Shown in pieces: positions 14,898 to 61,352 of a stretch of 64,000 nt of DNA (the first letter of the stretch is position 1; every line of letters starts with the position of its first letter). The position numbers and the translations under genes were made by a program. The notes beneath the pieces were generated by a model that was not told the origin of the DNA, did no database searches, and was given only the letters and a program-made list of their open reading frames with translations. The stretch lies in contig OY970166.1 in assembly GCA_963706595.1 (NCBI GenBank), positions 4,160,001 to 4,224,000 of the forward strand, given 5' to 3'. This stretch comes from an uncultured cyanobacterium. Its GTDB lineage: Bacteria; Cyanobacteriota; Cyanobacteriia; Cyanobacteriales; Nostocaceae.

Positions 14898-15027
14898 GGA
14901 TTATTTATGTCTGTAAGTGTTTATAATACTTCTGTAGAAAAATCCTTCCAACTTGATTGCATCATAAAAAAAGCAAAAAATCAGTGATATTCTGCTGTAA
15001 TTACTTTGTTGTTCTATTTTTAAGCTT

Positions 15028-43487: not shown

Positions 43488-43709
43488 TTAGTTAAAACTG
43501 GTGTATGAATCCTGACAAGAAAATTAACGAACAGGGAAGGAATATTTTTATGTAATACTGAATTAAGTTAATTATTTATAGGGTATTATACTAACACAAA
43601 CGTGGTGCGCTAACCCCAATAATTTTACATCATGGATAGGTTTCAGGTACTTTAAGAGAGGACTGATGTGGGAAAGCTCACCTCCTAGTTCAAGCAAAGA
43701 TCAACCAAT

Positions 43710-46010
43710 TTGAGCGACTCTGACCAGGAGCAACCGCCATTGATCCCTGGTAATCATTACGAGAACAAGGAAGCCACAAATGAGAGCTTATCACCCACAA
43801 GGTTTATGAAAACAAGGCAGTTCTGGAATCAAATAAATAGTGTCTCATCGGGGATCACTAGTATATTTAGCAGCCGAGATCGACCGTTTTATCGTCGGCT
43901 TTGGTTTTGGGCAACGCTAGGTATAGGTAGTAGCTTATGTGGTACAGTTATTGGCCTGCACTACTTAATTAGCATCATCGATCAAAGCTTGCCAGATAAA
44001 TCGCAACTACAAGTAGTCCGCCGAGCCAAAACCCTGACCATCAAAGCCGTTGATGGCAGCATCCTACAACAACAAGGTGAAGCCACCAGAGAACGACTGA
44101 GGGTAGAGGAAATACCTGAGCAACTCAAACAAGCTTTTATCGCCTCAGAAGACCGAAGATTTCAAAATCATCATGGTATTGACCCACAAGGAATTCTCAG
44201 AGCAGCTCTGAAGAACTTGCGATCGCAGACTGTAGCAGAAGGTGGTAGTACCATCACCCAACAGCTAGCGCGAATTCTTTTCCTGCAACAAGAGCAGACA
44301 ATCTGGCGCAAACTCAAAGAAGTCCGTCTAGCTCATCAACTAGAACAAGAATTGACCAAAAACCAGATTATCGAGCGTTACCTAAATTTGGTATATTTAG
44401 GATCTGGAGCTTATGGTGTAGGAGATGCTGCCTGGGTCTACTTCAGTAAAACGGTAGATCAACTCACCCTAGCCGAAGCAGCAATGATTGCTGGATTAGC
44501 TCCCGCCCCAAGTTTATACTCCCCCATACAAAATCCCACAGTTGCTATACAGAGGCGAAACATAGTACTGCAACGGATGTATGAAGATGAATTAATTACA
44601 GCCGCCGAAAAGCAAGCCTCATCACAGGAAACCCTAAACCTCAACAGCAGCTTTCCCAAACGCCTAGAAGTAGAATCTCCCTACTTTGCCAGTTACGTCC
44701 TCCAAGAATTACCCAAATATGTTTCCCCCGAAATCCTCAAACAAGGGGGTTTAATAGTTGAAACTACCCTAAATCCCACTTGGCAGCAAGCCGCAGAAGC
44801 AGCAGTTGCCAAAACCTTGAAAAATCAAGGTCGCTGGCAGAACTTCACCCAAGCGTCTTTAGTCGCCATAGACCCCCGCAACGGTGAAATTCAGGCCATG
44901 GTGGGAGGAAAAGACTTTAGTAAAAATCAGTTTAATCGAGTTACCCAGGCACAACGTCAGCCAGGATCGACATTTAAGGGATTTCTCTATGCCGCAGCCA
45001 TAGCCACTGGTAAAAGCCCTTACGACACCTACCTAGATGCACCTTTTGTAGTCGATGGTTACGAACCACAAAACTTTGGGAAAACCTTTCGTGGCTCCAT
45101 GAGCATACGAAATGCCCTCACCCGTTCCACTAATGTAATTGCGGTGAAAGTTTTGCTTGATGTAGGCTTTAAGCCAATTATTAATACCGCCCACAACTTG
45201 GGAATTAAATCCGAACTGCAACCGACCTATTCTTTAGCTCTTGGTTCCCATGAAGTCAATTTACTGGAATTAACCAACGCTTATGGTAGCTTTGCTACGC
45301 AAGGATTATACATAGAAGCTCATGGCATTCGCCGCATCCTCAACCGTCAAGGACAAGTCATTTGGTCAAATGATTTCCAGCATCAACGGGTTCTTGACCC
45401 CACAAGTGCCGGCATTATGACCTGGATGCTACGCCAAGTAGTAGAAGCCGGTACTGGCGGTCCTGCACAATTAAAGAATAGGCCTGTAGCTGGGAAAACC
45501 GGAACTTCCGATGAAGCCCGCGACTTGTGGTTTATTGGCTACATTCCCCAAATAGTCACAGGCGTTTGGTTAGGCAATGATAACAACCGCCCCACTTCAG
45601 GAGACAGTGCTAGTGCTGCTTACACCTGGAGGGAATTTATGGCAAAAGCAGTAGAGGGAATGCCTATAGAAAAGTTTCCCGAAAGACCAAAACTCCAAGG
45701 TCGCGTAGGTAGCATTAAAGCACAGCCCATCAAACCGAAATCAATACAGCATCGTTCTCTTTCCACTACTGCAAATCAGCCAAGTCCCACCACAGCTAAC
45801 GTTACCCGCTCATCTAGAAGGTCTAGAAGACGTTCACAGCCACAGGTCACAAATACACCCGCCAGTGTATCTTCACCGAGACGGCGTAGAAGAGTACAAT
45901 CAAATCCTACGCCACCCGCCACAACTAAACGGCCTAGTAGTTCAATTCCTTCAACACCCCCACCTTCGTGGCGGGAAAGACTTAGACCCGGCTCAAATTC
46001 TTCGGATTGA
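43710..46010 (+). CDS. Class A penicillin-binding protein (transglycosylase/transpeptidase); start uncertain because of an upstream in-frame TAG
   Basis: EDRRF, GGSTITQQL, RKLKE, STFK, STN, KTG motifs; basic disordered tail. Confidence 0.92.
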   Translation: MSDSDQEQPPLIPGNHYENKEATNESLSPTRFMKTRQFWNQINSVSSGITSIFSSRDRPFYRRLWFWATLGIGSSLCGTVIGLHYLISIIDQSLPDKSQLQVVRRAKTLTIKAVDGSILQQQGEATRERLRVEEIPEQLKQAFIASEDRRFQNHHGIDPQGILRAALKNLRSQTVAEGGSTITQQLARILFLQQEQTIWRKLKEVRLAHQLEQELTKNQIIERYLNLVYLGSGAYGVGDAAWVYFSKTVDQLTLAEAAMIAGLAPAPSLYSPIQNPTVAIQRRNIVLQRMYEDELITAAEKQASSQETLNLNSSFPKRLEVESPYFASYVLQELPKYVSPEILKQGGLIVETTLNPTWQQAAEAAVAKTLKNQGRWQNFTQASLVAIDPRNGEIQAMVGGKDFSKNQFNRVTQAQRQPGSTFKGFLYAAAIATGKSPYDTYLDAPFVVDGYEPQNFGKTFRGSMSIRNALTRSTNVIAVKVLLDVGFKPIINTAHNLGIKSELQPTYSLALGSHEVNLLELTNAYGSFATQGLYIEAHGIRRILNRQGQVIWSNDFQHQRVLDPTSAGIMTWMLRQVVEAGTGGPAQLKNRPVAGKTGTSDEARDLWFIGYIPQIVTGVWLGNDNNRPTSGDSASAAYTWREFMAKAVEGMPIEKFPERPKLQGRVGSIKAQPIKPKSIQHRSLSTTANQPSPTTANVTRSSRRSRRRSQPQVTNTPASVSSPRRRRRVQSNPTPPATTKRPSSSIPSTPPPSWRERLRPGSNSSD

Positions 46011-46014
46011 CTTG

Positions 46015-46320
46015 TTCGTAGGGTGTGTTATGCCGTAGGCTAACGCACCTTGAATTGCTGACATTGAAGCCGAAGTTTTAACGGTGCGTTGCGCTACGCG
46101 ACAACACACCCTACATTAAAAGTTCTTAATATAACTTGAAATACTAGTGCCGACTTACTTACCTACTTAGATGAAATATAATATATAGGACTCCTATCTG
46201 ATTTTTATTGGCGCGGCATAAAACAAAAAGGTTATTCCCCACTCCCCACTCCCCACTCCCTACGCAAATAAATATGGCTACGCCACGCTACGCAAACAGA
46301 AATCAAACCTGATTACTATA
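46015..46320. repeat. Dispersed palindromic repeats and short STRR
   Basis: GTAGGGTGTGTT...AACACACCCTAC hairpin (also 38308-38386, partial at 56920-56952), CCCCACT heptamers. Confidence 0.75.
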
Positions 46321-46335
46321 TATTCGCAGTTCCCT

Positions 46336-47730
46336 TTAGTTTTTCTGAATTCCATAACACAAACGACCAATTAACCAATTATTATCTTCACTATTATTTG
46401 ATTTTCCAGACTGTAGTATTTCTGTTCTATTTTTCAATCCAATGAAAAACTCCTCTATACCCTGAGTCTTTGTCCCATCTTGTTCATTACTTCTTGCTTC
46501 CCAGTCCCACTCTTTCCACCAAATAGGCGTTTGTAACCTTTGAGCAAAAATATCAAATTTAAACTTATAAACACCCGATTCGGGAAACTTGTTAGGCTCA
46601 ATTAATGCCGAGAAATTTAATTTATTTTCCTGAATCTGCCAATCTTGTAATTGAAAAGCAGTATTAATATCTGAACTATTCATAACTTTGAATTTTTTTT
46701 CAAATTCATCAAATTTTTCCACATCGACTTTTGAATTAATCAAACTTTTGTCAGTATCAATAAGCAAACTATATTTAGCCGCATAAAAAGGGAGAGTATA
46801 ATTAATTGTCAAACTTTCCTCTTGTCGATTGTCTATTTGCAAAAGTTCACCAGGATAATTATCTTTAGTAACAGAAACTCCATTTTTAACCAAAGAAACA
46901 GGTCGGTTCACACCTGGAACTGTTATTGTTGGTAAAGTTTCTAGACTTGAGACACCATTAATTATATTTTCTGGATGAAAAATCATCAAATTACTATTAA
47001 CCATCAATTGTTGTGAATCATTCTTTTTTAAATAATCAAAATAATACTGAATATCACGATATGGACCAACAAACAGAACGTAAAATGGTCTGAATTTCTC
47101 CGGTTCTTTTCCAGAAGAATACGCAAAAGTTTTGAGTTTATTTAGCTCTTGTACATATACAGTCCCATTAAACTCACTTTTTATCGCCCAAATTCCCACT
47201 GCATAATCCTTTCTATCTAGGTTAAAATAAATATCTTGGATTTTTTTGGTTAGCCTAGTCACATCACCGCTATTTTGCTCTAAATCCGTAACTATAACCG
47301 TCATTCTTTCCTCATCTTTTTTGGGAGGAATAATCGCAGCATCAATGGGGCTAGATACAGCTTTAAATTTTGTATTACTACCATCATAAAATACAGGCGC
47401 TCCGGCATAACTATAATATTCACCTCCTGTAATTTTTTGGTTTGGATTATCCAGACGATAGTATTCAACTGGTAATTTACCTATTAATTCAAAGGCATTT
47501 CTAATACTATTTAAAGCTTTCACATAATTAGTCTTTCCATCTCTCACATACCCCAGCATTGAGCCACTACCATCAACATAAATTCCTACATTGAGATTGT
47601 CAGATTTAGAAAGATTACTTTGATTGAATGCCGGAATTTCACAGGTTAATTTATCCTTAACTGCCACTGGATTGCAAGCTGTTAAAACAGTTATTACAAA
47701 TCCTAAAAAAAACCATCTAAATTGCATCAT
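46336..47730 (-). CDS. Putative lipoprotein with divergent vWA (MIDAS) domain
   Basis: From ATG 47730: lipobox VLTAC; IYVDGSGSM (DxSxS) and VIVTD. Confidence 0.7.
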   Translation of the reverse strand: MMQFRWFFLGFVITVLTACNPVAVKDKLTCEIPAFNQSNLSKSDNLNVGIYVDGSGSMLGYVRDGKTNYVKALNSIRNAFELIGKLPVEYYRLDNPNQKITGGEYYSYAGAPVFYDGSNTKFKAVSSPIDAAIIPPKKDEERMTVIVTDLEQNSGDVTRLTKKIQDIYFNLDRKDYAVGIWAIKSEFNGTVYVQELNKLKTFAYSSGKEPEKFRPFYVLFVGPYRDIQYYFDYLKKNDSQQLMVNSNLMIFHPENIINGVSSLETLPTITVPGVNRPVSLVKNGVSVTKDNYPGELLQIDNRQEESLTINYTLPFYAAKYSLLIDTDKSLINSKVDVEKFDEFEKKFKVMNSSDINTAFQLQDWQIQENKLNFSALIEPNKFPESGVYKFKFDIFAQRLQTPIWWKEWDWEARSNEQDGTKTQGIEEFFIGLKNRTEILQSGKSNNSEDNNWLIGRLCYGIQKN

Positions 47731-48095
47731 TTTGTTTCCTGAAGAAATTGAGAACTTATGAATCAGAAGGGACAAGCAAGAAACCAGGAGAAAAAACCCC
47801 TAAATAAATTCAGAGTTTTCCCACGAAAATGCCTTTTTGCTATCACTATGTGTCCTGAAAATTTTTCTTAACTTTATTAATAATTAAATTTTAAAGGATT
47901 TAAGCCTGTGGAAAGAAGTCAAAAAATATTTCTTTCCTTTAGCTCCTGCCTTGATTGGGTAAAGATTTTTAAGTAAATGTACGGTAGTTTTAATTCTTAT
48001 AAAAAAAGGATGATAAAAGTATATCAAAAAATACTAGCGATAGCTTTAAGCACGATGTTAAGACTCTGGATACAGAACAACAATAAGGAGAGCTA

Positions 48096-48569
48096 ATGAA
48101 GCCGTGGGAAATAATTAGGATCATCATTTTTAACGTTATTGGTGCTGCACTAATGTTTTTGGGGCAGCGTCTCATCTATGAAAATCAAATCATACCCATT
48201 CAAAAAGTCCCCCTTGATACTTGGCTTGGTGCTGACTATACCACAGCCGCACTGATCATGTTTGGAGTTTGTCTGTTGTCCACGATGATTTGGTGTCTCA
48301 TTGCCGCAGTCAGTAAGTTTACTGATAGTAGAAATGCTGGGAGTTGGATGTTGTTTTGGTGGTTGTTAGGACTTTTACCCATAGCCAGCATTGGTTTTAC
48401 AGTGTTTTACATTAACCGCAGCGACGAAGCCCAGTTTTCGCTGATGGGATTTTTCCTTTTAGATGCTATCTGGCTGTATTGGTTCAGCACCGCCACTAGT
48501 TCTCCTGAAGCCGTGAAATATATTCCACCAGGAGCTTTTTTTATCCGTCATAAGCTGATGGGAGATTAA
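48096..48569 (+). CDS. Hypothetical 4-TM membrane protein, first gene of the tubulin/actin operon
   Basis: AAGGAG SD; four hydrophobic helices; 3 bp from next gene. Confidence 0.8.
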   Translation: MKPWEIIRIIIFNVIGAALMFLGQRLIYENQIIPIQKVPLDTWLGADYTTAALIMFGVCLLSTMIWCLIAAVSKFTDSRNAGSWMLFWWLLGLLPIASIGFTVFYINRSDEAQFSLMGFFLLDAIWLYWFSTATSSPEAVKYIPPGAFFIRHKLMGD

Positions 48570-48572
48570 TAA

Positions 48573-50072
48573 ATGTCAATTTATGTGATTGGAATTGGTG
48601 GTACTGGCGCTAAGTGCATTGAAGCTGTAATTCAATTAGCATCCATAGGACTTTTTGGCGAAGAAACCCTGAATTTATTGTTTGTTGATGCTGATGAAAA
48701 TAATGGTAATTTAGAACGGGCATTAAAAAGCCTAAAAATTTATCAAGATTGCCAAAATTTAGGTCTTGCTGATAAACATCCCTGGATGAAAACCAAAATT
48801 GAGTCCTTTGGTTTATGGTCGCCTTTTGCCAACACCAGCGTCAATAAAAACCTTAGCTCATTCTTTGAATATAATATTCTCAAAGATGATGAATCAGCAT
48901 TAGGAAATTTATTTGATGTTCTTTATACTTCAGAAGAACGCGATGCTAATTTAGACGTGGGTTTTCGTGGTCGCCCTGCTATTGGTGCGGCGGTGATGAG
49001 TCAGGTAAAACTTGATTCTTTAGACCATGACTCATGGGGACAACTAATGAGTCAACTGCAAAAAGACACTGGAGGAGGTAAACGCCCCAAAGTATTTTTA
49101 TGTGGCTCAATTTTTGGTGGTACAGGGGCTTCAGGATTACCAACTATTGGCCGTTTAATTCATAATAAGTTGGAAACTCTGCAAATTAGAACTAAAGTTG
49201 ATATTGGTTGCTTATTTGTTTTACCTTATTTTGGTTTTACTCCTACTTTGGGAGAAAATGCAGAAACAGTCTATGCTCGTTCTGAACAATTTTTATTAAA
49301 CACAGAAGCAGCACTGCGTTATTATGGCAGTCAAGCCCAAGACAGTTTTGACACTGTATATCTGTTGGGAAATCAAAACTTATCTCCAGTTAAAGTTTTT
49401 AGTGTTGGTAAAAATACTCAACGCAATGACCCCCATTTTATTGAACTCTATGCGGCATTAGCAGCACGGCAATTTTTATTGAATACAACTTCCGAACAAA
49501 AAAAAGTGGTGTTGATGAATCGGGAGAATTTGAGAAATCTGATTTGGAAAGATATTCCCGACCAAAAAGCAGTTAACTCAGAGTTAGTTAATGCCACTCG
49601 TTTTGCTTTTATGTGGTTATCTAATATTGCCCCAGCGTTAGCGGAAGCTAAGAAAATTGGTGTGAAAAGCTTCCAAAAAGGTAATAGTTGGTTTGTGAAA
49701 TTCTTTCCTGACCGCATTGTTTTTCGCAACAATCAAAGACAAGAAATAGATTTTAATGATCCAGAACAGCAAAATGCTATAGAAACAATTACTGTCTGGT
49801 GTCAAGATTATTTACGTTGGCTGTCATTAGTTCATCAATGTGCTGGTGAAAATATTCAATTATTCAATGCTCAACATTTCAGTAATAGTAAGCTGAATCC
49901 TCAGCATTTATCAGATTTAATTAGTGGCTTAGGTGACAGTCGAGATCAAAACCAGAAATCTCAGGACACAGTACAAAAACTCAAAGAACGTTTGCATCCT
50001 CCAGCTATCAGTCTGCCCAATCAAGGCATATTGGGACTGTCTAAAGCTTTATATCTTGTTTGTCGGTTGTAG
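48573..50072 (+). CDS. Divergent FtsZ/tubulin-superfamily GTPase (Tubulin_2-like)
   Basis: VIGIGGTG, GFRGRPAIG, signature loop GSIFGGTGASG. Confidence 0.85.
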   Translation: MSIYVIGIGGTGAKCIEAVIQLASIGLFGEETLNLLFVDADENNGNLERALKSLKIYQDCQNLGLADKHPWMKTKIESFGLWSPFANTSVNKNLSSFFEYNILKDDESALGNLFDVLYTSEERDANLDVGFRGRPAIGAAVMSQVKLDSLDHDSWGQLMSQLQKDTGGGKRPKVFLCGSIFGGTGASGLPTIGRLIHNKLETLQIRTKVDIGCLFVLPYFGFTPTLGENAETVYARSEQFLLNTEAALRYYGSQAQDSFDTVYLLGNQNLSPVKVFSVGKNTQRNDPHFIELYAALAARQFLLNTTSEQKKVVLMNRENLRNLIWKDIPDQKAVNSELVNATRFAFMWLSNIAPALAEAKKIGVKSFQKGNSWFVKFFPDRIVFRNNQRQEIDFNDPEQQNAIETITVWCQDYLRWLSLVHQCAGENIQLFNAQHFSNSKLNPQHLSDLISGLGDSRDQNQKSQDTVQKLKERLHPPAISLPNQGILGLSKALYLVCRL

Positions 50073-50086
50073 AAGGAAAGTTAATT

Positions 50087-53000
50087 ATGACCAGTGCATA
50101 TACTACCAATCAATCTGCTTTGTTGCTACCCAAACTCAAAGATGATTGTGATGTCAAGTCTGGGAATCCCGGGATTTGGGATTCTCAAGCCCCAAAAGCT
50201 TTTAATGATGTCGCCTCCAGCTTAGATTACAAAGCACCGGGAGAAGTTAAAAGTGTTAGTTCTGTTCCCACGATTTGGGCGCGTCCTTTATCAATGGAAA
50301 TGGCATTACACAATGATGCTTATCCGATTCGGGAACAAATGATCATTCAATGGCAAGGAATGTTAGCGGCTTTAGCATTAGCAGAAGTACGCGGTTTTCC
50401 GATTAAAGCGGAACTTTTGGAACTGGGAACGAAAAAGGATAGTCACGTTTTTGCCCGTTCTCTGTATGAACTTTTACCTGATCCAGTTAACACCCTTTAT
50501 ACGTTCAATAATAATAAACATCCTTGGGAAGATTTATATGTCTTTACTTGGAAGAATCAACCTATAGGGATGAGTTCTCCTAGTACCTTGGTTGTACCTT
50601 CAGAAGAAGGCATCTGGGACGGTTTACCTTGGTGGGATAGTAATATATTACAGTTGCGATCGCCTCATAATTACCTTAACGACACAGAAAAAGCCCAACT
50701 AGCATTTTGGTTAGATAACCTCCGCAGAGAAATTAGAAGATATAACGGTCAAAGTAAAGCAATTGACCGCATTGTTGGCTTAGTCAATGGCTTTATTAAC
50801 AGCTTAGGTGTGACAACTACACCTAACTTTCAATTTAGTGATAATCCTGCCTACTTTGAAGTAGAAATCAACCGAGGCGCGTTAACTGCACTCAATTTAC
50901 CTGTTAAAGTTGAGTCTAGGGAATCTAATGTGAGGATTGTTCCCAGTTTAGTTAAACCAAATGTTCCCCCACTACTGATAATTGATCCCGCCATTGCGAC
51001 CGCTTGGAATGAACCACCGCAGAACATTTGCGTTTATGAAGGTAAAAATTTAGCAGCTTTTCGTCCTGAAGATTTAGAAACCTGGAACCGGAGTAGAAAA
51101 GTAATCTGTCTGGAATCGAAAGATTTATTTTTACCAGACTTGAAATTTATTGATCAAGAAGGAATTTTACCAGGGGCTTTACTTCCCGAAGGAACTCAAA
51201 GCTTGGTCTTTAAAAATAGGAATATTACCCCTTTAATTCCTTTGAATCCGATTTTGTTAAATTACTTCACCCCAGAAGATTTAACCAAAAAGATTAAACT
51301 CCAACTGGTTAATAATGGTGCTGGCGGTTCACAAGTTCGGGTAAGTTTAACCTTACCTTTATATGGTGTTAAAGGTGGTAAAGTACCGCAAAACTTCTTT
51401 TTAGTTAAAGACTATCCTTTGCTAGAAGAAAACATCATTTACCAAGTACCTGTTTTAGAGGTATGGCCTGACTTCCGTGCTGAAGGTTGGAAAGAATATT
51501 ACGGCTTTTACTACGATGCTGAATATGGGGAAGAAACATTTCAAGTCAGTTTCCCCAATGCGAAAGATATTCATATTTTTAAAGAACGTAAAGGTTCTTA
51601 TCAAACAGTACAGCTAGAGGAATTTCCAGCATTTATTGAGTGTAAAGACATTTATACCAATACTGTTGGATTAATCCTATTAGCTACTCCAGAAGAAATT
51701 TCTCCAGTCGGAAACTGGGTAGTTGGTGTTGACTTTGGAACTTCTTTTACTAACGTATATGTCAACAAAAATGATAAAGTTACAGAAAGACTAAATCTAG
51801 AAAATCTGCATCGTAAAATTACTTACGTGTTGGTGGAAACTAGATTTCCAGTATTGTTTGAATACTTTATTCCCGAAAGCTTTATTCCCATAGATAAACC
51901 TTTCCCCATGTCTACTGTATTAACAAGGAAAGGCAGCAAAAATGCCAATGAAGACCAATTAAATCCAATTTTTGATGGTCGGCTGTATATTCCTGCTCGT
52001 AATCGCTTTGAGCCTCAACAGACATGGATTAGAACCAATCTTAAATGGGACACTATTAACTTAACCGATAATCAACTTTTTCTCAAACACCTGGCGCTAC
52101 ATATTACTGCGATCGCAGCTAAAAATGGCGTAAAAAATATTCAATGGTCTTTATCATTTCCATCTGCTTTCTCAGCAAAACAAGAACAAAATTATGCCAA
52201 GAATTGGCAGAAAATAACCAAAGAAATAGAAGCTAAGTCAAGTATTAAACACCAGAGTCCCGCCAAAGATGACCCCACTTATTTCCGTACAGAAAGTTTA
52301 GCATTTGCTCAATACTTTGCTGAATACGAAGATGAAAATCTTGTCAATACAACTTGTATTGATATGGGTGGTGGAACATCAGATATTTCCATTTGGCAGG
52401 ATGATGAGCTAGTTCATCAATGTTCAGTTGAATTAGCAGGTCGTGATTTATTCTCTCAATTCATTAAAATTAATCTTAATTTTCTCAAGAAGTTAGATAT
52501 CAATCCTGATGAGTGGAAAACACTGAACAAAGAAGAAGCTTTCAATGCCAAACTCGATGTATGGATGCGTCTAGAAGCCGCTAATTGGTTAGAGAAAAAA
52601 CGAGATTTATTAGAAGAAGATAAAGACTTTCAAGGACTGCTGCGTTTAATGGCAATAGGTGTATCTGGCTTATACTTTTATGTTGGTCAGATTCTTTCTG
52701 TTCTACACAAAGAGGATAAATATACTCTTGATGAAATTACTCCAGTGTATATAGGTGGTAATGGTTCGCGTTTGTTGCATTGGTTGGCTGAAGGTGGTGA
52801 ATTTGATAAAAATTCAGAAATTAATGGTTTATTAAGTCGAATGATGAGTGTAGCTTCTGGTTTTACTGATACAGAAGAACTCACACGCCTAAGTCAAAAT
52901 CCCAAAGATGAAGCTGCTTGCGGTCTAGTTTTGAAAGATAAAAAACTCAAAGGGTTAAATAAAAAGGAAAAAGATCATGTAATTGCCGGCGAAGATTGTG

Positions 53001-53362
53001 AAATTGATGGTCAAATCTTTAGTTGGCAAGATCGGTTACAAATTAAAGCAAAAACAATTTCTAAATATCAAATTCCTGAACTAACTCAGCTAAGATTATT
53101 TCTTGATGCTTTCCATGCTAGTTTAGAAGACTTAGGAATTGATGGCATTAAACCTCTAGAAGGTTATGAATTTGAAAAAGAATATCCAGATGATCCAGAC
53201 CCTGACTATAATCAAAAACTATGGAAAGCTACAGCTAGGGAGTTAAAAGATTCTTTAAATTCTATTAAAGGTGATGTTGAAAATATCCGTGAAGAACCAC
53301 CATTCATTCTAGCGTTAAAAGCATTGCTCAAAGTTTTAGCTAAGAATTGGGCTGGTAAATAA
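50087..53362 (+). CDS. Large protein with C-terminal actin/Hsp70 (ASKHA) fold ATPase domain
   Basis: Phosphate-1 VGVDFGTSFT, connect-1 TESLAFA, phosphate-2 IDMGGGTSDIS, adenosine IGGNGSRL, connect-2 PKDEAACGL; ATG 50087 with AAGGA SD. Confidence 0.8.
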   Translation: MTSAYTTNQSALLLPKLKDDCDVKSGNPGIWDSQAPKAFNDVASSLDYKAPGEVKSVSSVPTIWARPLSMEMALHNDAYPIREQMIIQWQGMLAALALAEVRGFPIKAELLELGTKKDSHVFARSLYELLPDPVNTLYTFNNNKHPWEDLYVFTWKNQPIGMSSPSTLVVPSEEGIWDGLPWWDSNILQLRSPHNYLNDTEKAQLAFWLDNLRREIRRYNGQSKAIDRIVGLVNGFINSLGVTTTPNFQFSDNPAYFEVEINRGALTALNLPVKVESRESNVRIVPSLVKPNVPPLLIIDPAIATAWNEPPQNICVYEGKNLAAFRPEDLETWNRSRKVICLESKDLFLPDLKFIDQEGILPGALLPEGTQSLVFKNRNITPLIPLNPILLNYFTPEDLTKKIKLQLVNNGAGGSQVRVSLTLPLYGVKGGKVPQNFFLVKDYPLLEENIIYQVPVLEVWPDFRAEGWKEYYGFYYDAEYGEETFQVSFPNAKDIHIFKERKGSYQTVQLEEFPAFIECKDIYTNTVGLILLATPEEISPVGNWVVGVDFGTSFTNVYVNKNDKVTERLNLENLHRKITYVLVETRFPVLFEYFIPESFIPIDKPFPMSTVLTRKGSKNANEDQLNPIFDGRLYIPARNRFEPQQTWIRTNLKWDTINLTDNQLFLKHLALHITAIAAKNGVKNIQWSLSFPSAFSAKQEQNYAKNWQKITKEIEAKSSIKHQSPAKDDPTYFRTESLAFAQYFAEYEDENLVNTTCIDMGGGTSDISIWQDDELVHQCSVELAGRDLFSQFIKINLNFLKKLDINPDEWKTLNKEEAFNAKLDVWMRLEAANWLEKKRDLLEEDKDFQGLLRLMAIGVSGLYFYVGQILSVLHKEDKYTLDEITPVYIGGNGSRLLHWLAEGGEFDKNSEINGLLSRMMSVASGFTDTEELTRLSQNPKDEAACGLVLKDKKLKGLNKKEKDHVIAGEDCEIDGQIFSWQDRLQIKAKTISKYQIPELTQLRLFLDAFHASLEDLGIDGIKPLEGYEFEKEYPDDPDPDYNQKLWKATARELKDSLNSIKGDVENIREEPPFILALKALLKVLAKNWAGK

Positions 53363-53379
53363 AACACTTGCTTTAAAAG

Positions 53380-53404
53380 TGGGCGATATATTCATATTCG
53401 CCCA
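53380..53404 (+). other. Intra-operon stem-loop
   Basis: TGGGCGATAT...ATATTCGCCCA without a T-tract. Confidence 0.45.
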
Positions 53405-53446
53405 AATTATATTAAAGTCAGTAAATCAACTATAAGGAGGTTAAAA

Positions 53447-54259
53447 ATGGAAAAAAATTCTAATAAATGTCCAGTTTGTCACACTGAATTTAGTGAGCAG
53501 GAAAAAAGAGAAATAGTAATAAACAATATAAATAAAATAAATAACTTTAAGATAAATTGTGAAAAACTAAACGAAGAAAATAAAAACTTGAGAATTCACA
53601 TAGAGGAATTAAACCAAAAAATACAAGAACTTCAAGAACAATTAATCAAGTATGACAGTCCTGATGATTCAGTAGTTCAATATAATGATGTAGAAATACA
53701 AGAACTTCTACAGAAATTAAAACATCCACTGGTTATTGAGGCTATTAAAAACATAATTCATAATCATGTTGAAAGCCAAGATAATTCAATATCTAATCAA
53801 GTTGGAGAAGATCTCAAAAATCAAAATGTAGATGAAATAATAACTGATGATGTAGAAAATAATTCTCCTGAGTCTGATACAGCTATAACATTACACGAAC
53901 AGGAATTAGTCAAGAATTATCAAGATTCAAATTTCGATTTTCAGCAATTTATAATTAGGGTCTCTGAACCAGAGCAAAGTCAAACTAATCGTTGGGGTGG
54001 TAGTAAAGAAGCAACAAGTTTTAAATATAATCGCCAAGGTAATTATTGGATAGTCAATATGGATAATGGTTTGTATATCGTGCCTCAAAAAAAGTTTAAG
54101 ATTAATGAATATAGCCAAGAAACATTAACCTCAACTTTTGATTGTCGTAACTATCAACCAGGAAAATCAGAAGATTTTGTTTTAATAAAACCTGGGAAAG
54201 TAATTGCTATAAGCGCAGAGGAATGGCAATTAGTAGAACGTGGTATCCTACACTTTTAA
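53447..54259 (+). CDS. Hypothetical coiled-coil protein with C-terminal repeat-family domain (copy 1)
   Basis: AAGGAGG SD; CPVC, coiled coil, GNYW...KPGKV...WQLVERGILHF. Confidence 0.8.
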   Translation: MEKNSNKCPVCHTEFSEQEKREIVINNINKINNFKINCEKLNEENKNLRIHIEELNQKIQELQEQLIKYDSPDDSVVQYNDVEIQELLQKLKHPLVIEAIKNIIHNHVESQDNSISNQVGEDLKNQNVDEIITDDVENNSPESDTAITLHEQELVKNYQDSNFDFQQFIIRVSEPEQSQTNRWGGSKEATSFKYNRQGNYWIVNMDNGLYIVPQKKFKINEYSQETLTSTFDCRNYQPGKSEDFVLIKPGKVIAISAEEWQLVERGILHF

Positions 54260-54269
54260 TCATTACATT

Positions 54270-55718
54270 ATGTTAAAAAGCAATTACATCAAATCTCTCC
54301 CTGTAGTTTTACTAATATCTCTGATGGTTGGGTGTGAACGTCCTCCCTTGGATTCCCAAAATAGTAATCCTACAGTTAAAATCAGTACATCTCCAATTGT
54401 TCAAGAGAAACCAGATAATTTAAATGCAGTTTTATCTGCATACAGTGAATTTAAGAACTCAATCACTAAGCTTAATTCTGAACTGAAAAATTTTGTAGTA
54501 GGGAATTTACAGCCAGACCAAGTAAATTTTAGCGAACCTAACAAAAAGCTAATTAAATTACAGGAATCTATTTTAGCTTTAAAAATACAGCTTAATGGCA
54601 TAAGTAATAATTCCGATATTAATCAATCTATTGATGATATAAATACAACAATTACAGATATTCAGAGAGTAATTAAACCAATAGAAAAAGGATTAAATTC
54701 TGCTGTTGTGCGTGAAGTTCAACAATTAATAGACCTGCAAAAAAATACAGGAATAGCTCCTACAGGTATTTTTAAAACCACTACACAGGAACAACTCGAA
54801 AAATTCCTTGTGCTAAGACTTGGAAATTTAGACCAGCAATTTAAAGAAATTGATAACCTTATTCAAAAAACAGAAAATATTTCCATTAATAACAATATTA
54901 TTAATCCTGATAGTCCAATTATCGCAAATTCTACGGCGGAAAATCAGGACGAAATTCTGATATCTAAATCAGCACTTGATAATATTTATAACCGGCTGAA
55001 TCTGACTGTGACTATTACCAGTTGTGGGTTTATTATCCTAGCTGGATTATTCGCATGGTTGATGTATAGGCTAAATCTCGTCGAAACCAGACTAAAATCT
55101 AGTAATTCCTCAAAAAATGAAACTCAATTAGGGAATATTAAAAATTATATTGAGAGCGAATTTACACAGATTGAACAGTATTTACAAAGTTTAGATACTA
55201 GGTTCAAAAATTTAGAAATATCTTCTCAAAATTATAGTTCACCAAATTATAAAGGTGAAAATAATCAATCCTATACTTCACAAAGTAACACAGCAACAAA
55301 TCATCCACAACCTAAAGTAGTAAATATTTCTCATTCTCAATCATCTACATCGAATAAAGAAACTCAGATAGTGACATTATATAATAATCAGCCTCGTTCT
55401 CTATCTGCAAATGCAATTACTGTGGCAGAAACTGATCACACAGTTGAACAACGTCGTATGGGTAGAACTGTTGCACCTATTTTAGAGGAAAATCAGCTAG
55501 GTAATTATTGGATAATTCAAGAAGGTCATAACGAATATCTTGTACCTAAAGGAAGTATTAAAATTAATGAATATAACTATGAAACAATATCAAGCTGTTT
55601 TGAATGTTTAGCATATAATCCAAATTATTCCAGTAATTTTATATTGTTAAAACTAGCAATAGTTTCATCTATAGGACAAAATTGGCAATTAATAGAACCA
55701 GGTGAATTACAATTTTAA
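54270..55718 (+). CDS. Putative lipoprotein with internal TM helix and C-terminal repeat-family domain (copy 2)
   Basis: Lipobox LMVGC, TM ITSCGFIILAGLFAWLMY, GNYW...WQLIEPGELQF; ATG 54270. Confidence 0.75.
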   Translation: MLKSNYIKSLPVVLLISLMVGCERPPLDSQNSNPTVKISTSPIVQEKPDNLNAVLSAYSEFKNSITKLNSELKNFVVGNLQPDQVNFSEPNKKLIKLQESILALKIQLNGISNNSDINQSIDDINTTITDIQRVIKPIEKGLNSAVVREVQQLIDLQKNTGIAPTGIFKTTTQEQLEKFLVLRLGNLDQQFKEIDNLIQKTENISINNNIINPDSPIIANSTAENQDEILISKSALDNIYNRLNLTVTITSCGFIILAGLFAWLMYRLNLVETRLKSSNSSKNETQLGNIKNYIESEFTQIEQYLQSLDTRFKNLEISSQNYSSPNYKGENNQSYTSQSNTATNHPQPKVVNISHSQSSTSNKETQIVTLYNNQPRSLSANAITVAETDHTVEQRRMGRTVAPILEENQLGNYWIIQEGHNEYLVPKGSIKINEYNYETISSCFECLAYNPNYSSNFILLKLAIVSSIGQNWQLIEPGELQF

Positions 55719-55732
55719 TCAACACAAATTAC

Positions 55733-56848
55733 ATGGAAATGCAAAATATTGAAAAGGTGGATTTTTCGGAAAATGAATTAATTATATTATATAATTATAT
55801 TCCCCGTCTAATTGAAAAATCTGCAATATTAGTTAATTTATCTCCTAGTTACTATACAAACGGTAAGCAGGAAATATTGCTGACAGAAGATACAAAAGGA
55901 AATTACTGGGTTATTGCAACTGATTATGATATTTATTGGCTGTTTCCCATTGCGACACTCAAGGGTAAATTTAACCACCATGTCAATGAAGCATTAAATC
56001 TATTATTTGAGTTTAAAAATTACGAAAATTCAGAAAATCGTGAATTTACGCTGAAAAAACCAGCTAAAGTTTATCCTGCGATTAGTCGGGAAGGTTGGAT
56101 ACTAGAATCAACAGGTTTTCTGGATTTTACTAATTTACGGTTATTATCTATTGAAACATCAAATGGCAACAGCAATAAAATACCATTAATACAGGAAAAT
56201 TCAACTTTACAGCTATCACAAAAAGAATTTGAGGAATATAGAAGTAAAGTTGAGGCGGAAATTAATCTATTAAAAATGCAAGTTCAACAGTTGACGGAAG
56301 CGCGAGAACAATTTAAAACCGAAATTAAAGAAATTAAGGATAGGTATTTTAGTTTAGAAACTCAACTACCAGCGACAGCAGAACACAATAGTTCTAGTAA
56401 TCATCAGGTTGAGAATACTCAAGAGGTAAAAATATCAAATCAGGATAATTCAATTAATATATCTACAGAATTAAATCTCACTTCTGAAGAATTACGAATT
56501 GTTGAAACATATAATTATAATCCTGTGATAATTTCACAGCAAGCGAAGCAAGTTTCTGAAACTACAACTAGTATTGAAAAGCGTAGTCAGGGTATTAATG
56601 ATACAGTTGTTTTAGAAAAACAATCTCAAGGTCATTACTGGTTGGTTGGTAAAGAGACATTATATTTAATGCCTAGACGAGGTTTCAAGATAAATCGCTC
56701 AACTGTAGATACTTTTAAAGCTTTATTTCAATTTCGAGGAAGTAAAGTTCCAAGTAAGTTTAAGTTAATCAAACCTGCTCAGGTAGCTATGATAATTAAT
56801 TCACAAACTTGGCAACTAACCGAGCGGGGAATTATTGAATTTGAATAA
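55733..56848 (+). CDS. Hypothetical protein with two repeat-family domains (copies 3, 4) around a coiled coil
   Basis: GNYW...KPAKV...WILESTGFLDF and GHYW...KPAQV...WQLTERGIIEF. Confidence 0.8.
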   Translation: MEMQNIEKVDFSENELIILYNYIPRLIEKSAILVNLSPSYYTNGKQEILLTEDTKGNYWVIATDYDIYWLFPIATLKGKFNHHVNEALNLLFEFKNYENSENREFTLKKPAKVYPAISREGWILESTGFLDFTNLRLLSIETSNGNSNKIPLIQENSTLQLSQKEFEEYRSKVEAEINLLKMQVQQLTEAREQFKTEIKEIKDRYFSLETQLPATAEHNSSSNHQVENTQEVKISNQDNSINISTELNLTSEELRIVETYNYNPVIISQQAKQVSETTTSIEKRSQGINDTVVLEKQSQGHYWLVGKETLYLMPRRGFKINRSTVDTFKALFQFRGSKVPSKFKLIKPAQVAMIINSQTWQLTERGIIEFE

Positions 56849-57191
56849 GCTTAAGTAAGTTGTTGAGAAAAATTTAATGTATATAAAAAGATATTAGCTG
56901 TTGCACTGTAAATTGGTGAAGGTGCGTTGCGCTTCGCGACAACACACCCTACTTAATTTGTCTTTAGATTGTCAGAAGTATTCGTGCTTACCTACTTATT
57001 TATATGAAGTATAATTTACGAAGTCTCAAACCTAAAACAGAAAAGCTGTTAGATAAACTCAAGGAACTGAAACTTCAACTGCAAGATTTATTTTTACCTA
57101 AAATAGGGGGGAAATGTGTACACAACCTATATTTATAGTAGAATTAAAGGCTTTATTGACTATTTTATCACAAAGGTGGGATTAATAACTA

Positions 57192-57926
57192 ATGTCTACA
57201 ATAAAGTTTGATGAACTTGTCCGCAGTTTTAATAATTTGAGACAACTTTGTTATCAGAATTTTGCCGTTAGAATAACTAATATAGAAGATTATCTATCTA
57301 CACTTACTGACCGAGTTATAGAGGGAAAGGTGATAGTTAATGGTAATTTTGAGGCAGAAAAAGTTAGCCGTGTGAATATTTCTGAGTCTCAGTTGGTGCA
57401 AGTTTATAATGATGTTCCTCAAGTTTTAGGGAAAAATTCTGTTGTTTTGGAATTAACTGCTAAAAGTTATCGTAATCTTCAACATGGTGAACCAATTTTC
57501 CTGGAAAATGATGAGAATGGTAAATATTGGATGATTACAACTGATATAGATCGGTTTTTTGTTGTGCCAAGTATGAATGTTAAATCAAATATACACAAAT
57601 TAAGAACTGTCAAAATGTTGTTTGATTTCTCTGGTGATGAGCCGTCAGCAGATAGTGATTTTATATTAATTGAACCTGCAAAAGTTTCTAGTCAAGCCAG
57701 TGGTAAGGAATGGAAACTAAAAGAAAGGGGGATTTTGGAATTTAAGAATGCTTTTTTGCCGAATCAAAATTTTCAAACAAATGTGGAAGATTCTAATTTA
57801 GAAATAAAAAAAATTGCTCAACAGTTAGATGATTTAAAAATTCAGTTCTATGAGTCGCAGCAAGAAAGAATAAAATTACAGTTGCAAGTTGAAGAAATAG
57901 CGAATAAGTTAAAATGGTTAGATTAA
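57192..57926 (+). CDS. Hypothetical protein with repeat-family domain (copy 5) and C-terminal coiled coil
   Basis: GKYW...EPAKV...WKLKERGILEF. Confidence 0.8.
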   Translation: MSTIKFDELVRSFNNLRQLCYQNFAVRITNIEDYLSTLTDRVIEGKVIVNGNFEAEKVSRVNISESQLVQVYNDVPQVLGKNSVVLELTAKSYRNLQHGEPIFLENDENGKYWMITTDIDRFFVVPSMNVKSNIHKLRTVKMLFDFSGDEPSADSDFILIEPAKVSSQASGKEWKLKERGILEFKNAFLPNQNFQTNVEDSNLEIKKIAQQLDDLKIQFYESQQERIKLQLQVEEIANKLKWLD

Positions 57927-57942
57927 TTTAGTTTTAATAAGC

Positions 57943-58044
57943 TATAGCGGTTATCAGTTAAGTGAGATGAACCCCACCCCCAACCCCCTCCCCGCAAGCG
58001 AGGAGGGGGCTATGATGTACTTCATTGAAGTGGATACCGCTATA
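57943..58044. repeat. MITE-like repeat
   Basis: TATAGCGGT...ACCGCTATA TIR; copy of 35795-35991. Confidence 0.8.
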
Positions 58045-58303
58045 ATCTCTATTTAATATCAATGTCAATGTCGCATGAATGAATATTTGTAATGGAGAAG
58101 GTCGCCAAGTGAAGAGGTTCAGAAATGATTTAGGACTGCTATAGGTTAGGTTGAGCAATGCAAAACCCAAAGTTGGCGAGGATGTTGGATTTCCCAAAGC
58201 CTCAACTCAACCTACTTTAATTATAAGTTGTAATTTAAATATGCGTTTTCGGTGAACTGTCGTAGAGAGCTTGTATACAATGTTTCTAGATTCGGTGGCA
58301 TTT

Positions 58304-60940
58304 TTACAATTTTAATTGTTCGTTTTGGAGAATTTCTGTGGCTTTTTCAGCCGTAAGTGGTCTGTAGAACAGAAAACCCTGGACATCCTCACAGTTGATG
58401 GATGCTAAAAAATCGAGTTCTTCTTGCTTTTCTACTCCTTCGGCGGTTAATCTTAATCCTAAACTCCTGCCTAAAGTGACGATCGCCTGGACAATATGAG
58501 CAACTTTCGCATCCTTTGTCAACCCGTGGATGAAAGACCTGTCAATTTTTAAATTGTGAAATGGTAACAGTTGTAGGCGCGAGAGTGAGGAATGACCAGT
58601 ACCAAAGTCATCAATGGAAATATGAACGCCCATTTGTTCTAAACTTTGCAACACTGTTCTAGTAAAATCTAAATCTTCAATAGCTGTAGTTTCTGTAATT
58701 TCTAATTCTAAAAAGTTGGGGTCTAAACCTGTCTGTTCTAAAATTTTAGCTACTGTCTCTACTAGTTTAGGTTGGCGGAACTGTTGAGGAGATAAATTGA
58801 CAGCAATAGTCAGAGGAGGAAATCCAGCTTTTTGCCAAGCTTTATTCTGAATACAGGCTGTCCGTAATACCCATTCGCCAATCTGGACTATTAATCCATT
58901 GGCTTCAGCCAGGGGAATGAAAACATTGGGCGCGACTAGTCCCAAATCAGGATGCTGCCAACGTAACAGCGCCTCCATACCAGTAATTTTTTTGCTATTA
59001 ATGTTGATCTTAGGTTGATAATATATCGTTAATTCTTGCTTTTCTAGGGCATGGCGCAAGCTTTTTTCTAAAGTTAGAAGTTCAGGATTTTTGGTATTTA
59101 GGGTATTGGTGTAGAACTGGTAGTTATTTCTGCCTTCATCTTTGGCATAATATAAGGCGGTATCTGCGTGCTGAATTAAAGTTTCGGCATCAGAGTTATG
59201 TTCATCAAGTAAGGCAATGCCGAGGCTGGCACTCACATAAAGTTCATGTCCATCCAGATAAAATACATCTTCTAAGGCTTTTAAAATTCTCTGTGCTACC
59301 TGTGAAACTTCTTCAAGATAATTCACGCGAGTTAGTAGGATAGTAAATTCATCACCCCCCCAACGGGCAAGAGTATCCCCGCTTCGGAGAGAGTTTTTCA
59401 ATCTTTCTGCCACATGTTGTAACAATCGATCTCCCAATGTATGACCCAATGTGTCATTGATGATTTTGAAACGATCCAAATCAAGAAACATCACAGCTAA
59501 ACTTTCCTGATTACGAACCGCGTTGGGTACGGCTTTTTCCAGCAGCTCATTAAATAACAACCGATTGGGTAATCCAGTGAGGAAATCATGAAGAGCCTGG
59601 AAGCGGATTTTGCCTTCGACCTGCTGACGCTGCCAAGCACCACTAATACTAGCTGCCATTGTCAAAAGTGTAGATTCTTCATGCTTTGACCAAAGGCGCT
59701 CTGTTGAACAATCTGCCAAGCCCAGATAACCCCAAAATTTTGCCTCTAGCCGCAAAGGTACTAGTAGCAGAGATTTTATACCGTCTCTGGAGAGTAATTC
59801 TCGCTCGCTGGGAGGAAATTCTTTTGTGAGTCCGTTAATAGATTCTCCACTAGAGAGAACAGCATACCAACGTCCTAATTCAGCAGATTGATAAGACTGA
59901 TTCTGCCAGTCTTGAAGAGAAGATTCAGTGTTGATGTTTGTCCATTCAAACTGGAGGCTAACTGCCATTTCCCCTGTTACTGAATGAAGATGATTACTAA
60001 AGACATAGACACGATCTACCTTGGCAGCTTTCCCCAACACAGCCAGAGCTTTGTGAATAGCGATTTCGTAGTTCATTTCTACTAGTAAATAATTGGCTGC
60101 TTCGGCAACTGCCTGTAGCAAGCGATCGCGTTGCTGGAGTTCGGCTTGGGCTTGTTTTTGCTCAGTAATATCCCTAGCAATAAAAGTTCTAATTAAGTCA
60201 CTTTCTGGCAGAAAATGTACTGATTGCTCAAAGATTTTTTGACCAACCTGCACTTCCCGGACAAAAGGATTTTTCTGGCGATTAGCAACTGCATTGAGTA
60301 ATCCTGTGAGGATAGGATGTTGTTTGCCCATTTGCTTGAGTTTGGGAAACTCCATAGATGCAGCTGGATTGAGATAAGTCACCCTCTCCTTGAGATCCAT
60401 CTCAATAATCGGATTGGGGATAAGTTCTGGGAAAGAAGCTAGGCGAGCTAAAGCTGTATTATTAGCTCCGTCAGAGCCAGGATCAATAATTAGAGTTTGA
60501 AAAGGATTGAGGGTGTTGACTTGGTTAGTCAGAAAATCAGACAGGTCTTCGGCTTCACAAGAGGCAAAAAATTCTGTTTCAGATAGGTTAGAAACAGCAT
60601 AATATTTAGCCTGAGCTTGATGGTCACCAAACACAATCACATCTCCATGCTTGAGGTTATGAGAGAAGGATTTATTCCCATTTACTAATAAGCCATTAGT
60701 ACTACCCTGTCCTGTGAAGTTACCATCTATAATCCAAAAGCCATATTGGTCAGTTTCTGGAAGAGTTACCCGTAATAAAATTGCATGTTGTCTAGATACT
60801 GAACGTGAACGCAGGACAATAGAGTTTTCACGATGCCGTCCTAAAGAATAAATAGCCTCGTGAAGGGGGATAGTCTGCCGTCCTCGCAAGTCTTGGATAA
60901 CTAACAAGTGGCGTATTTTTTCCCGCTCATTTCCTGACAT
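58304..60940 (-). CDS. FHA-PAS-GAF-GGDEF-EAL c-di-GMP signalling protein
   Basis: FHA LGR...SVSRQHA...STNG; WGGDEF; MEALLRW; DDFGTG. Confidence 0.92.
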   Translation of the reverse strand: MSGNEREKIRHLLVIQDLRGRQTIPLHEAIYSLGRHRENSIVLRSRSVSRQHAILLRVTLPETDQYGFWIIDGNFTGQGSTNGLLVNGNKSFSHNLKHGDVIVFGDHQAQAKYYAVSNLSETEFFASCEAEDLSDFLTNQVNTLNPFQTLIIDPGSDGANNTALARLASFPELIPNPIIEMDLKERVTYLNPAASMEFPKLKQMGKQHPILTGLLNAVANRQKNPFVREVQVGQKIFEQSVHFLPESDLIRTFIARDITEQKQAQAELQQRDRLLQAVAEAANYLLVEMNYEIAIHKALAVLGKAAKVDRVYVFSNHLHSVTGEMAVSLQFEWTNINTESSLQDWQNQSYQSAELGRWYAVLSSGESINGLTKEFPPSERELLSRDGIKSLLLVPLRLEAKFWGYLGLADCSTERLWSKHEESTLLTMAASISGAWQRQQVEGKIRFQALHDFLTGLPNRLLFNELLEKAVPNAVRNQESLAVMFLDLDRFKIINDTLGHTLGDRLLQHVAERLKNSLRSGDTLARWGGDEFTILLTRVNYLEEVSQVAQRILKALEDVFYLDGHELYVSASLGIALLDEHNSDAETLIQHADTALYYAKDEGRNNYQFYTNTLNTKNPELLTLEKSLRHALEKQELTIYYQPKININSKKITGMEALLRWQHPDLGLVAPNVFIPLAEANGLIVQIGEWVLRTACIQNKAWQKAGFPPLTIAVNLSPQQFRQPKLVETVAKILEQTGLDPNFLELEITETTAIEDLDFTRTVLQSLEQMGVHISIDDFGTGHSSLSRLQLLPFHNLKIDRSFIHGLTKDAKVAHIVQAIVTLGRSLGLRLTAEGVEKQEELDFLASINCEDVQGFLFYRPLTAEKATEILQNEQLKL

Positions 60941-61352
60941 TGCTCATCCTTAAATTTTTATATCTGAGAATTTTTTCGGAAAAAACACTGGTCAATCGAT
61001 TGTGGATTTTGGACTGATCCTGACCAGCAGGGTAAGGGGCTTGGGGATTTTGGATAATAGAATTGCTTCACTCACAGGGGGGAGGTACTGAGGTTCTTTA
61101 GTTTCCAAAGGTGGGGCAAGTGGCGTTGAGGCATGAAAAAAAATCTACAATTGGCACGGTCAATTTAACCTGAATTTTCAGTCTCTGTTTTCTGAAAAAA
61201 CTCTGGTGGTATCTATCTTACATTTGGACAGAGGACTCCCTCTACATCCTATCGGATTAGCGGTGAGATGAATGGCGGTCAAAAAAAAACTAACGCCATA
61301 GAGTTTCCTGTTTTGGTTGATTTTAGTTGTTCAACTTATTATTTTAGTTGCT

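Follow-up and report, generated by a model that had tools for sequence, protein, structure and literature searches.

What kind of machine is encoded by eight neighbouring genes that bring together a tubulin-like GTPase and an actin-fold ATPase? This is the question raised by a locus within the 64,000-nucleotide stretch of DNA analysed here (the window), which covers positions 4,160,001 to 4,224,000 of contig OY970166.1 (GenBank assembly GCA_963706595.1) from an uncultured cyanobacterium of the family Nostocaceae. The original prediction for this locus described an envelope-spanning system composed of a von Willebrand factor A (vWA) lipoprotein, a membrane protein with four transmembrane (TM) helices, an FtsZ/tubulin-like GTPase (hereafter Tub), a large actin/Hsp70-fold ATPase (Act) and four paralogous coiled-coil proteins (cc1 to cc4). 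Our analysis leads us to favour, at a probability of about 0.4, the reading that the cluster is a nucleoside triphosphate (NTP)-switch biological-conflict system with a sensor arm in the envelope, in which Tub would serve as the output.

The ATPase Act comprises an N-terminal domain (residues ~18-290), a beta-rich middle region (~300-545), an actin/Hsp70-fold ATPase domain (~550-961) and a helical C-terminus. Its AlphaFold2 model (predicted local distance difference test, pLDDT, 89.1; predicted template modelling score, pTM, 0.78) retrieved Hsp70 nucleotide-binding domains as the top Foldseek matches, together with MreB, ParM and BeeR (best E 2.2e-7), and the VIA ranking placed MreB, BeeR and FtsA above Hsp70; the actin/Hsp70 fold attributed to this protein from its sequence is therefore borne out by the model and by both structural comparisons. 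The Pfam scan did not bring Act to the family cut-offs of MreB, FtsA or ParM. Sub-threshold matches to FtsA, MreB and EutA lie around residues 752-805, those to FtsA (17.8 bits, cut-off 31.8) and MreB (14.3 bits, cut-off 27) over these residues alone, and neither PF00012 nor NCBIfam DnaK gave a match at E<=1. Across 62 sequences, D558, F559 and G560 are invariant in VGVDFGTSFTNV, as are D768, G770 and D775 in CIDIGGGTSDISIW and G900 in VYxGGNGSR, where G899, N901 and G902 are conserved in at least 90%. We take these three to be the phosphate-1 (DxG), phosphate-2 (DxGGGT) and adenosine (GG) motifs, respectively. The two-lobed actin-like fold of the model and the intact nucleotide motifs confirm, at the level of structure prediction, the assignment of Act to the ASKHA superfamily.

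The search for relatives of Act yielded 1312 representative clusters at E<=1e-3, of which 493 remain at E<=1e-30. Among the best 150 of the 1312, the N-terminal domain is present in 109 and absent from 41, and 16 of these 41 bear a different N-terminal region of at least 150 residues. Pfam recognised a caspase domain in five of these 16 heads, a kinase in two and TIR in two, with no match in five and two left unscanned. The Act-core proteins at loci L010 and L011 carry a CHAT and a kinase head, respectively, the latter with trypsin-like and WD40/TPR neighbours. At L011:1540-10606, the kinase-headed core stands amid genes for a trypsin-TPR-WD40 protein, a trypsin-like peptidase and a Ser/Thr kinase, a gene run that looks like a separate conflict-type neighbourhood. 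Core-only second Act paralogues were also seen inside arrays of genes for the repeat domain described below, at L025:5649-8579 (minus strand) and L007:16780-18978 (plus strand); the L025 paralogue has the repeat domain fused as its N-terminal head.

The N-terminal domain of Act is predicted to bind Tub via a very large interface. When Tub was modelled with Act residues 18-300, the ipSAE score reached 0.87 in all three runs, and the best of three controls reached 0.01. This mark was attained by 116 of 157 solved complexes and by 2 of 215 mismatched pairs, counts that calibrate the result only roughly because the Tub-Act prediction used custom alignments. The runs share at least 96% of their contacts, with a partner pLDDT of at least 85, and the predicted interface of ~270 contacts includes Tub residues 133-137, 186-191 and 217-219, which we take to be the T3, T4 and T5 loops of the nucleotide face. 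In addition, Tub is naturally fused to a full-length Act in two metagenomic proteins, P0063 (1341 aa) and P0057 (1605 aa). The predicted binding and the two fusions together suggest that Tub and Act are probably not independent switches.

The FtsZ/tubulin-like character proposed for Tub is confirmed at the Pfam level, on sequence grounds, by a whole-protein score of 32.3 bits against PF13809 (Tubulin_2; cut-off 27) over residues 165-320; the six-frame domain score of 24.3 lies under the same cut-off. Among the homologues listed, 112 of 120 carry a precomputed PF13809 domain. Alignment of 26 sequences showed that G9, G10 and G12 of GIGGTGAK are invariant (G7, A13 and K14 at 90% or above), and that G178, S179, F181-A186, G188 and P190 of GSIFGGTGASGLP are likewise invariant, the other residues of both motifs being conserved at 90% or above; N285, H288 and E291 are invariant too. 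We presume the glycine-rich loops to be T1 (GxGGxG) and T4, the 'tubulin signature' (GGTGxG).

The four cc proteins do share a common domain (BLASTP E 1e-11 to 7e-25), as their description as paralogues requires, whereas their coiled coils are inferred from weak coiled-coil family matches. This repeat domain of ~120 aa occurs in five copies over cc1 to cc4, which are also the only five matches in this genome, and its hidden Markov model detected 110 copies in 88 proteins across the loci and the window. No relative was found in Pfam or in the PDB, and the ESM Atlas returned unnamed clusters alone (best score 0.92). The AlphaFold2 model of the domain is confident (pLDDT 88.8, pTM 0.83) and consists of two N-terminal helices, about ten strands and one helix. 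Since it has no relative in sequence or fold, the repeat domain may represent a new adaptor fold. No signal peptide or TM segment is present in three of the four cc proteins; a TM-bearing repeat-domain protein is present in 23 of 27 loci, and the number of repeat-domain proteins per locus ranges from 1 to 7. The cc1 orthologues carry an N-terminal CxxC in 20 of 27 loci, mostly two in a zinc-ribbon-like CxxC-x12-15-CxxC arrangement, and the cc1 of the window, with a single CxxC (53447-53560), may therefore have lost half of a metal site. A match of cc1 to the Rad50 zinc hook (21.6 bits, against a cut-off of 24.3) was rejected as an artefact of CxxC next to coiled coil, the orthologues being zinc-ribbon-like. 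Specific to the cluster, multi-copy, fast-evolving and in L025 fused to the hub protein itself, the repeat domain behaves like an adaptor.

The claim that the divergently transcribed first gene encodes a lipoprotein is supported: the lipobox residue Cys34 is invariant in 23 homologues, as are C45 and C473. The vWA part of the claim is not confirmed. Among the 23 sequences, D68 and S72 of VDGSxSM are invariant and T163 and D164 of TDLEQ are conserved in at least 90%. We take a metal ion-dependent adhesion site (MIDAS) to be defined by DxSxS ... T ... D, and the lipoprotein carries this as a sequence pattern. None of the 23 homologues matched any VWA family of Pfam at E<=1, none of 114 has a precomputed Pfam domain, a PDB profile search gave no match and the ESM Atlas no usable one. 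With hhalign, comparison to a custom VWA_2 alignment was weak (probability 11.6%) and covered 45 columns around DxSxS only. One 71%-identical orthologue bears the UniRef name 'VWFA domain-containing', and DxSxS is given as the MIDAS motif in the available text of Makarova and Koonin (PMC2875224). Elsewhere in the window (9615-9932), a 689-aa open reading frame (ORF) unrelated to the cluster contains a bona fide VWA_2 domain (59.7 bits). As for the small membrane protein, three of the four helices ascribed to it are clear in the hydropathy scan (residues 5-23, 54-72 and 86-104) and the fourth is possible; it has no match among the Pfam and NCBIfam families. An envelope-spanning layout is plausible from these sequence features, because the lipobox is invariant, the small membrane protein has three to four TM helices, and cc2-type proteins combine a signal sequence or lipobox with a TM segment in mid-protein. 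The coordinates of all these elements are collected in Table 1.

Table 1. Genes of the cluster and features of the surrounding island, in positions of the window.
Feature	Position	Strand	Remarks
Periplasmic lipoprotein with MIDAS-like motif	46336..47775	-	Likely start near 47730; database copy 464 aa
Small membrane protein, 157 aa	48096..48569	+	3-4 TM helices by hydropathy scan
Tub, short Tubulin_2-family GTPase, 499 aa	48573..50072	+	PF13809 match and invariant motifs
Act, 1100-aa ATPase	50060..53362	+	Probable ATG start 50087
cc1	53447..54259	+	N-terminal CxxC, predicted coiled coil, C-terminal repeat domain (53894-54256)
cc2	54240..55718	+	Signal/lipobox, ~230-aa probably periplasmic part, TM helix (residues 257-275), cytoplasmic repeat domain (55356-55715); probable ATG 54270
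cc3	55733..56848	+	Two repeat domains (55766-56128, 56486-56842) linked by predicted coiled coil
cc4	57192..57926	+	Repeat domain (57381-57743), then predicted coiled coil
Accessory island with the whole cluster	46009..58324	.	Empty sites in same-genus genomes and low GC
Short dispersed repeats, left island end	46012..46324	.	Query 3013-3162 and 3180-3325 match dozens of same-genus sites
Short dispersed repeats, right island end	57943..58143	.	Query 14944-15045 and 15095-15144 match dozens of same-genus sites

The cluster is patchily distributed and mostly keeps its composition where it occurs. Tub is present in 33 of 401 cyanobacterial genomes, belonging to 24 of 155 genera. Fourteen loci were found with Act, 11 of which keep the order lipoprotein, TM protein, Tub, Act, and three of which hold a core-type Act only. 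Among 20 regions examined around Tub from other cyanobacterial families, 19 contained Act, 19 the TM protein, 19 the lipoprotein and 18 repeat-domain proteins. The proportions 11/14 and 19/20 bear out the co-occurrence across genomes that a single system implies. Among Nostocales, identity to the proteins of the window is 75-87% for Act and Tub, 59-75% for the lipoprotein and 32-68% for the cc proteins, and the upstream flank of the window is common to Chrysosporum bergii only, among the loci compared. The organism names attached to homologues of Tub, Act and the lipoprotein are all cyanobacterial, filamentous as well as unicellular, and nearly all of the proteins are annotated as hypothetical; one homologue, from a Synechococcus strain, lies on a plasmid. 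A 4.1-kb contig (L014) in a record labelled as a Chloroflexaceae metagenome-assembled genome also has the cluster, its proteins being 63-68% identical to those of the window. Binning of a cyanobacterial contig into a Chloroflexi genome is the probable cause, rather than an occurrence outside the cyanobacteria. Decayed copies were also seen. Act is split into two ORFs in L012 (819+281 aa) and in L018 (706+382 aa), where the TM gene is split as well, and it is interrupted in L020 (947+107 aa); Tub is truncated and Act missing in L034, and the Tub match of G071 contains one in-frame TGA. At L021:5532-10548, an insertion of ~5 kb separates Tub from Act, whose ORF is extended by 281 aa at the N-terminus.

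In the window, the cluster occupies an island of ~12.3 kb whose content between the flanks is exactly the eight genes; no further ORF of at least 80 aa was found within it, except one nested antisense ORF. The ORFs that we found match the predicted eight-gene coordinates and gap sizes exactly, the gaps being 3, 14, 84, 10, 14 and 343 bp when the internal ATG starts of Act and cc2 (Table 1) are taken. The AT-richness reported for the cluster is equally evident (GC 0.30-0.41 in 1-kb bins over 46001-58000, compared with 0.465-0.475 at 44001-46000 and 0.40-0.42 at 58001-61000). On the left, the island adjoins a 766-aa ORF (43710-46010), whose translation reads as that of a penicillin-binding protein, and on the right an 878-aa ORF. 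Comparison of window positions 43000-61000 with five same-genus genomes showed that the two flanks lie 48 bp (G405), 64 bp (G403), 74 bp (G318) and 157 bp (G402) apart in genomes without the island, and on separate contigs in G376; flank identity in these genomes is 84-86% on the left (43000-46008) and 85-90% on the right (58325-61000). The island is therefore polymorphic, present in some close relatives and missing from others, because its flanks adjoin in four of the five genomes. The repeats at its ends are ~100-150 bp each, with dozens of copies in same-genus genomes, and may be recombination substrates for gain and loss of the island, similar to miniature inverted-repeat transposable elements. 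In scans of the sequence, promoter-like sites numbered 41 (mean of the shuffles 47.6) and terminator-like sites 10 (mean 6.9), no better than on shuffled sequence.

We propose a series of linked steps by which these components could act. The cluster would encode one multi-protein machine around Act as its actin/Hsp70-fold ATPase hub, an ATP-driven switch or oligomeriser of the anti-phage or programmed-death type that would work in the manner of a STAND NTPase, with Tub as the output arm in the place where sister proteins bear a killing or signalling enzyme. The repeat-domain proteins would be adaptors, of which one would span the inner membrane and reach into the periplasm, one would have a zinc-ribbon-like head, and the others would be cytoplasmic and variable in number. 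They would join the lipoprotein and the small TM protein in coupling the hub to a sensor in the envelope. A trigger there would alter the nucleotide state of the hub, and this change would release or activate Tub for GTP-dependent assembly at the membrane, by which the cell would be arrested or remodelled. We favour this conflict reading because the Act core has swappable heads, the repeat domain is adaptor-like, and the lipoprotein, the TM protein and cc2 provide an envelope arm; the Act-core relatives with caspase, TIR, kinase and CHAT heads tilt the function towards biological conflict. The same picture can be taken further, to the claim that hub ATPases of the actin/Hsp70 fold, as a family not described before, replace STAND NTPases in cyanobacterial immunity or cell death, and that the hub clamps Tub by its nucleotide face and is wired to the envelope through an adaptor of new fold, so that an insult would lead to GTP-dependent tubulin assembly and arrest. 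We consider it unlikely that this further claim holds.

Several observations weigh against the conflict reading. The operon contains no enzyme with an obvious toxic activity, and the caspase, TIR and kinase heads sit on paralogues, not on the Act of the window. A search of PADLOC-DB v2 gave no match for six of the eight proteins, and the matches of cc1 and cc3 are weak ones to coiled-coil regions of LmuB, DruG and PtuB (best E 1.7e-5). About six of the 84 flanking proteins at 28 loci are defence-like (a Zeta toxin, two AAA_15/AAA_21 ATPases, a Uma2 protein, a DNA methylase and an SMC-like AAA_23 protein) and the remainder are products of ordinary metabolic or photosynthetic genes, and consequently there is no defence-island signal. 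The score of the Tub-Act complex is a measure of model confidence and not a measurement. Furthermore, the family assignment of Tub rests on Pfam and on motifs, because neither FtsZ nor tubulin turned up in a PDB profile search and hhalign against 14 cyanobacterial FtsZ sequences gave a probability of 1.4% (E 0.037, 51 columns), in which weak match only the T3-T4 stretch was aligned, in register with GGNPAIG...GGGTGTG of FtsZ.

The main rival, which we regard as somewhat unlikely, is that Tub and Act form a membrane-remodelling or cytoskeletal apparatus that plays no part in conflict: with the TM and coiled-coil proteins as their base, the two would assemble at the inner membrane and give shape to the envelope, the thylakoid membranes or vesicles. 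A Tubulin_2 protein, an actin-fold ATPase and partners in the membrane and periplasm are what such an apparatus would contain, the metabolic and photosynthetic flanks and the dearth of PADLOC matches beyond weak coiled-coil ones agree with it, and the same role is proposed for FtsZl1 operons in the available text of PMC2875224. Against it stand the patchy occurrence of the cluster, the precise empty sites in close relatives, the variable number of cc proteins, the decayed copies and the caspase, TIR, CHAT and kinase heads of sister Act cores, all of them features that mark accessory genes of biological conflict. An Hsp70-like chaperone or assembly function, in which Act, with Tub as co-factor, would use ATP for the folding, assembly or export of the repeat-domain proteins so as to build an envelope structure (adhesion, a surface layer or cell-cell contact), appears quite improbable. 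It would account for the Hsp70 domains at the top of the Foldseek matches, for the repeat-domain proteins that accompany Act, one of them membrane-inserted with a periplasmic part, and for the UniRef name 'Molecular chaperone' of one homologue. Act, however, lacks the Hsp70 substrate-binding domain and any PF00012 match, no J-domain/DnaJ or GrpE protein is encoded in the cluster, VIA puts three actin-family proteins ahead of Hsp70, and three of the four cc proteins are without a signal peptide or TM segment. Plasmid partition is driven by tubulin-like and by actin-like NTPases, and by this TubZ/ParM analogy a polymorphic or mobile island with one plasmid-borne homologue could encode machinery for segregating or maintaining a mobile element, but this is very improbable, as the island has lipoprotein and TM components in place of an integrase, replication gene, centromere-binding adaptor or repeat array, and the cluster sits in chromosomes at many different sites.

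If the proposed association is true, it would be the first bacterial complex of a tubulin-family GTPase with an actin/Hsp70-fold ATPase, and the natural fusions and the high-scoring model provide a starting point for its study. The Act core represents a large unnamed family, and the swapping of its heads suggests that cyanobacteria, with their poorly explored immune repertoire, have a non-P-loop equivalent of the NLR-type switches. The Tubulin_2/FtsZl1 proteins have been without an experimental function since 2010, and a compact, conserved operon offers a tractable entry point to them, as well as to what may prove a new adaptor fold.

As had been predicted, no characterised system matches the cluster: the PADLOC comparison was negative, no cluster protein scored above cut-off in the NCBIfam scan, and no description of this architecture was found in the searchable literature. 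The nearest relatives are predicted systems. Makarova and Koonin (2010, PMC2875224) described FtsZl1-vWA operons and proposed a role in membrane remodelling; their main text on these operons, as far as available, does not mention Hsp70. In parts 1-2 of 4 of supplementary file 5 of that paper, the FtsZl1 proteins are 763-1393 aa long and most have neighbours recognisable as vWA by Pfam or COG, the cyanobacterial FtsZl1 pairs with vWA, 'B7' and OmpA/MotB proteins, and one FtsZl1 operon of Magnetospirillum (amb2961) includes a 1626-aa DnaK-like protein. A 2023 review treats Tubulin_2 as an outgroup only. The present cluster resembles the FtsZl1 operons in that a divergent Tubulin_2 GTPase adjoins a secreted or lipid-anchored protein bearing a MIDAS-type motif and membrane proteins, and in a patchy distribution that includes a cyanobacterial clade and a function that is uncharacterised. 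It differs in the shorter Tub (499 aa, against the 763-1393 aa of the supplementary parts cited), in a neighbour that is not recognisable as vWA (COG2304), and in the lack of any match to OmpA/MotB or a P-loop GTPase among its eight proteins in the Pfam and NCBIfam scans. Its partners are instead a protein with 3-4 TM helices, an 1100-aa ASKHA ATPase and the repeat-domain proteins.

The GAP1-N2 GTPase systems of Firmicutes and Actinobacteria show tubulin/vWA or HSP70/GrpE/DnaJ themes, and the tubulin and HSP70 themes do not overlap, according to the available text of Kaur et al. (2020, PMC7159879). These too are predicted NTP-dependent conflict systems with tubulin homologues, vWA-type envelope proteins and coiled coils, or with Hsp70-fold proteins, and NTPase-driven multimeric assembly is invoked as their output. 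In contrast to the GAP1-N2 systems, which centre on a P-loop GTPase and fibronectin type III-repeat proteins, none of the eight proteins here matches a P-loop GTPase or fn3 family, the host is cyanobacterial, and the cluster combines a tubulin-like with an Hsp70/actin-fold protein, between which binding is predicted. A preprint from the Aravind laboratory states, in its accessible portion, that an HSP70-like NTPase can replace STAND (bioRxiv 10.64898/2026.10.19.760177). The Act core family, with its swappable caspase, CHAT, TIR and kinase heads, is similar to the effector-NTPase-sensor proteins of the STAND/NLR type, but its core has the actin/Hsp70 fold and not a P-loop, and the Act of the window bears a Tub-docking head and no enzyme. 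Among the papers listed on cyanobacterial caspases, metacaspases and cell death, neither 'Hsp70' nor 'actin-like ATPase' occurs. MreB, FtsA, ParM, BeeR and CorM/FcmB are stand-alone filament formers of ~320-400 aa, whereas Act has 1100 aa, three extra domains and a patchy distribution. CorM/FcmB, a ParM-derived cyanobacterial actin (PMC12645912, 10.1101/2025.06.27.661541), was considered as the same thing as Act and rejected; FcmB is ubiquitous in heterocyst-forming cyanobacteria according to the available text of PMC12645912. The cluster is thus an uncharacterised, conserved system that belongs with the predicted tubulin/vWA NTPase systems, and differs from them in its candidate new-fold domain and its predicted Tub-Act complex.

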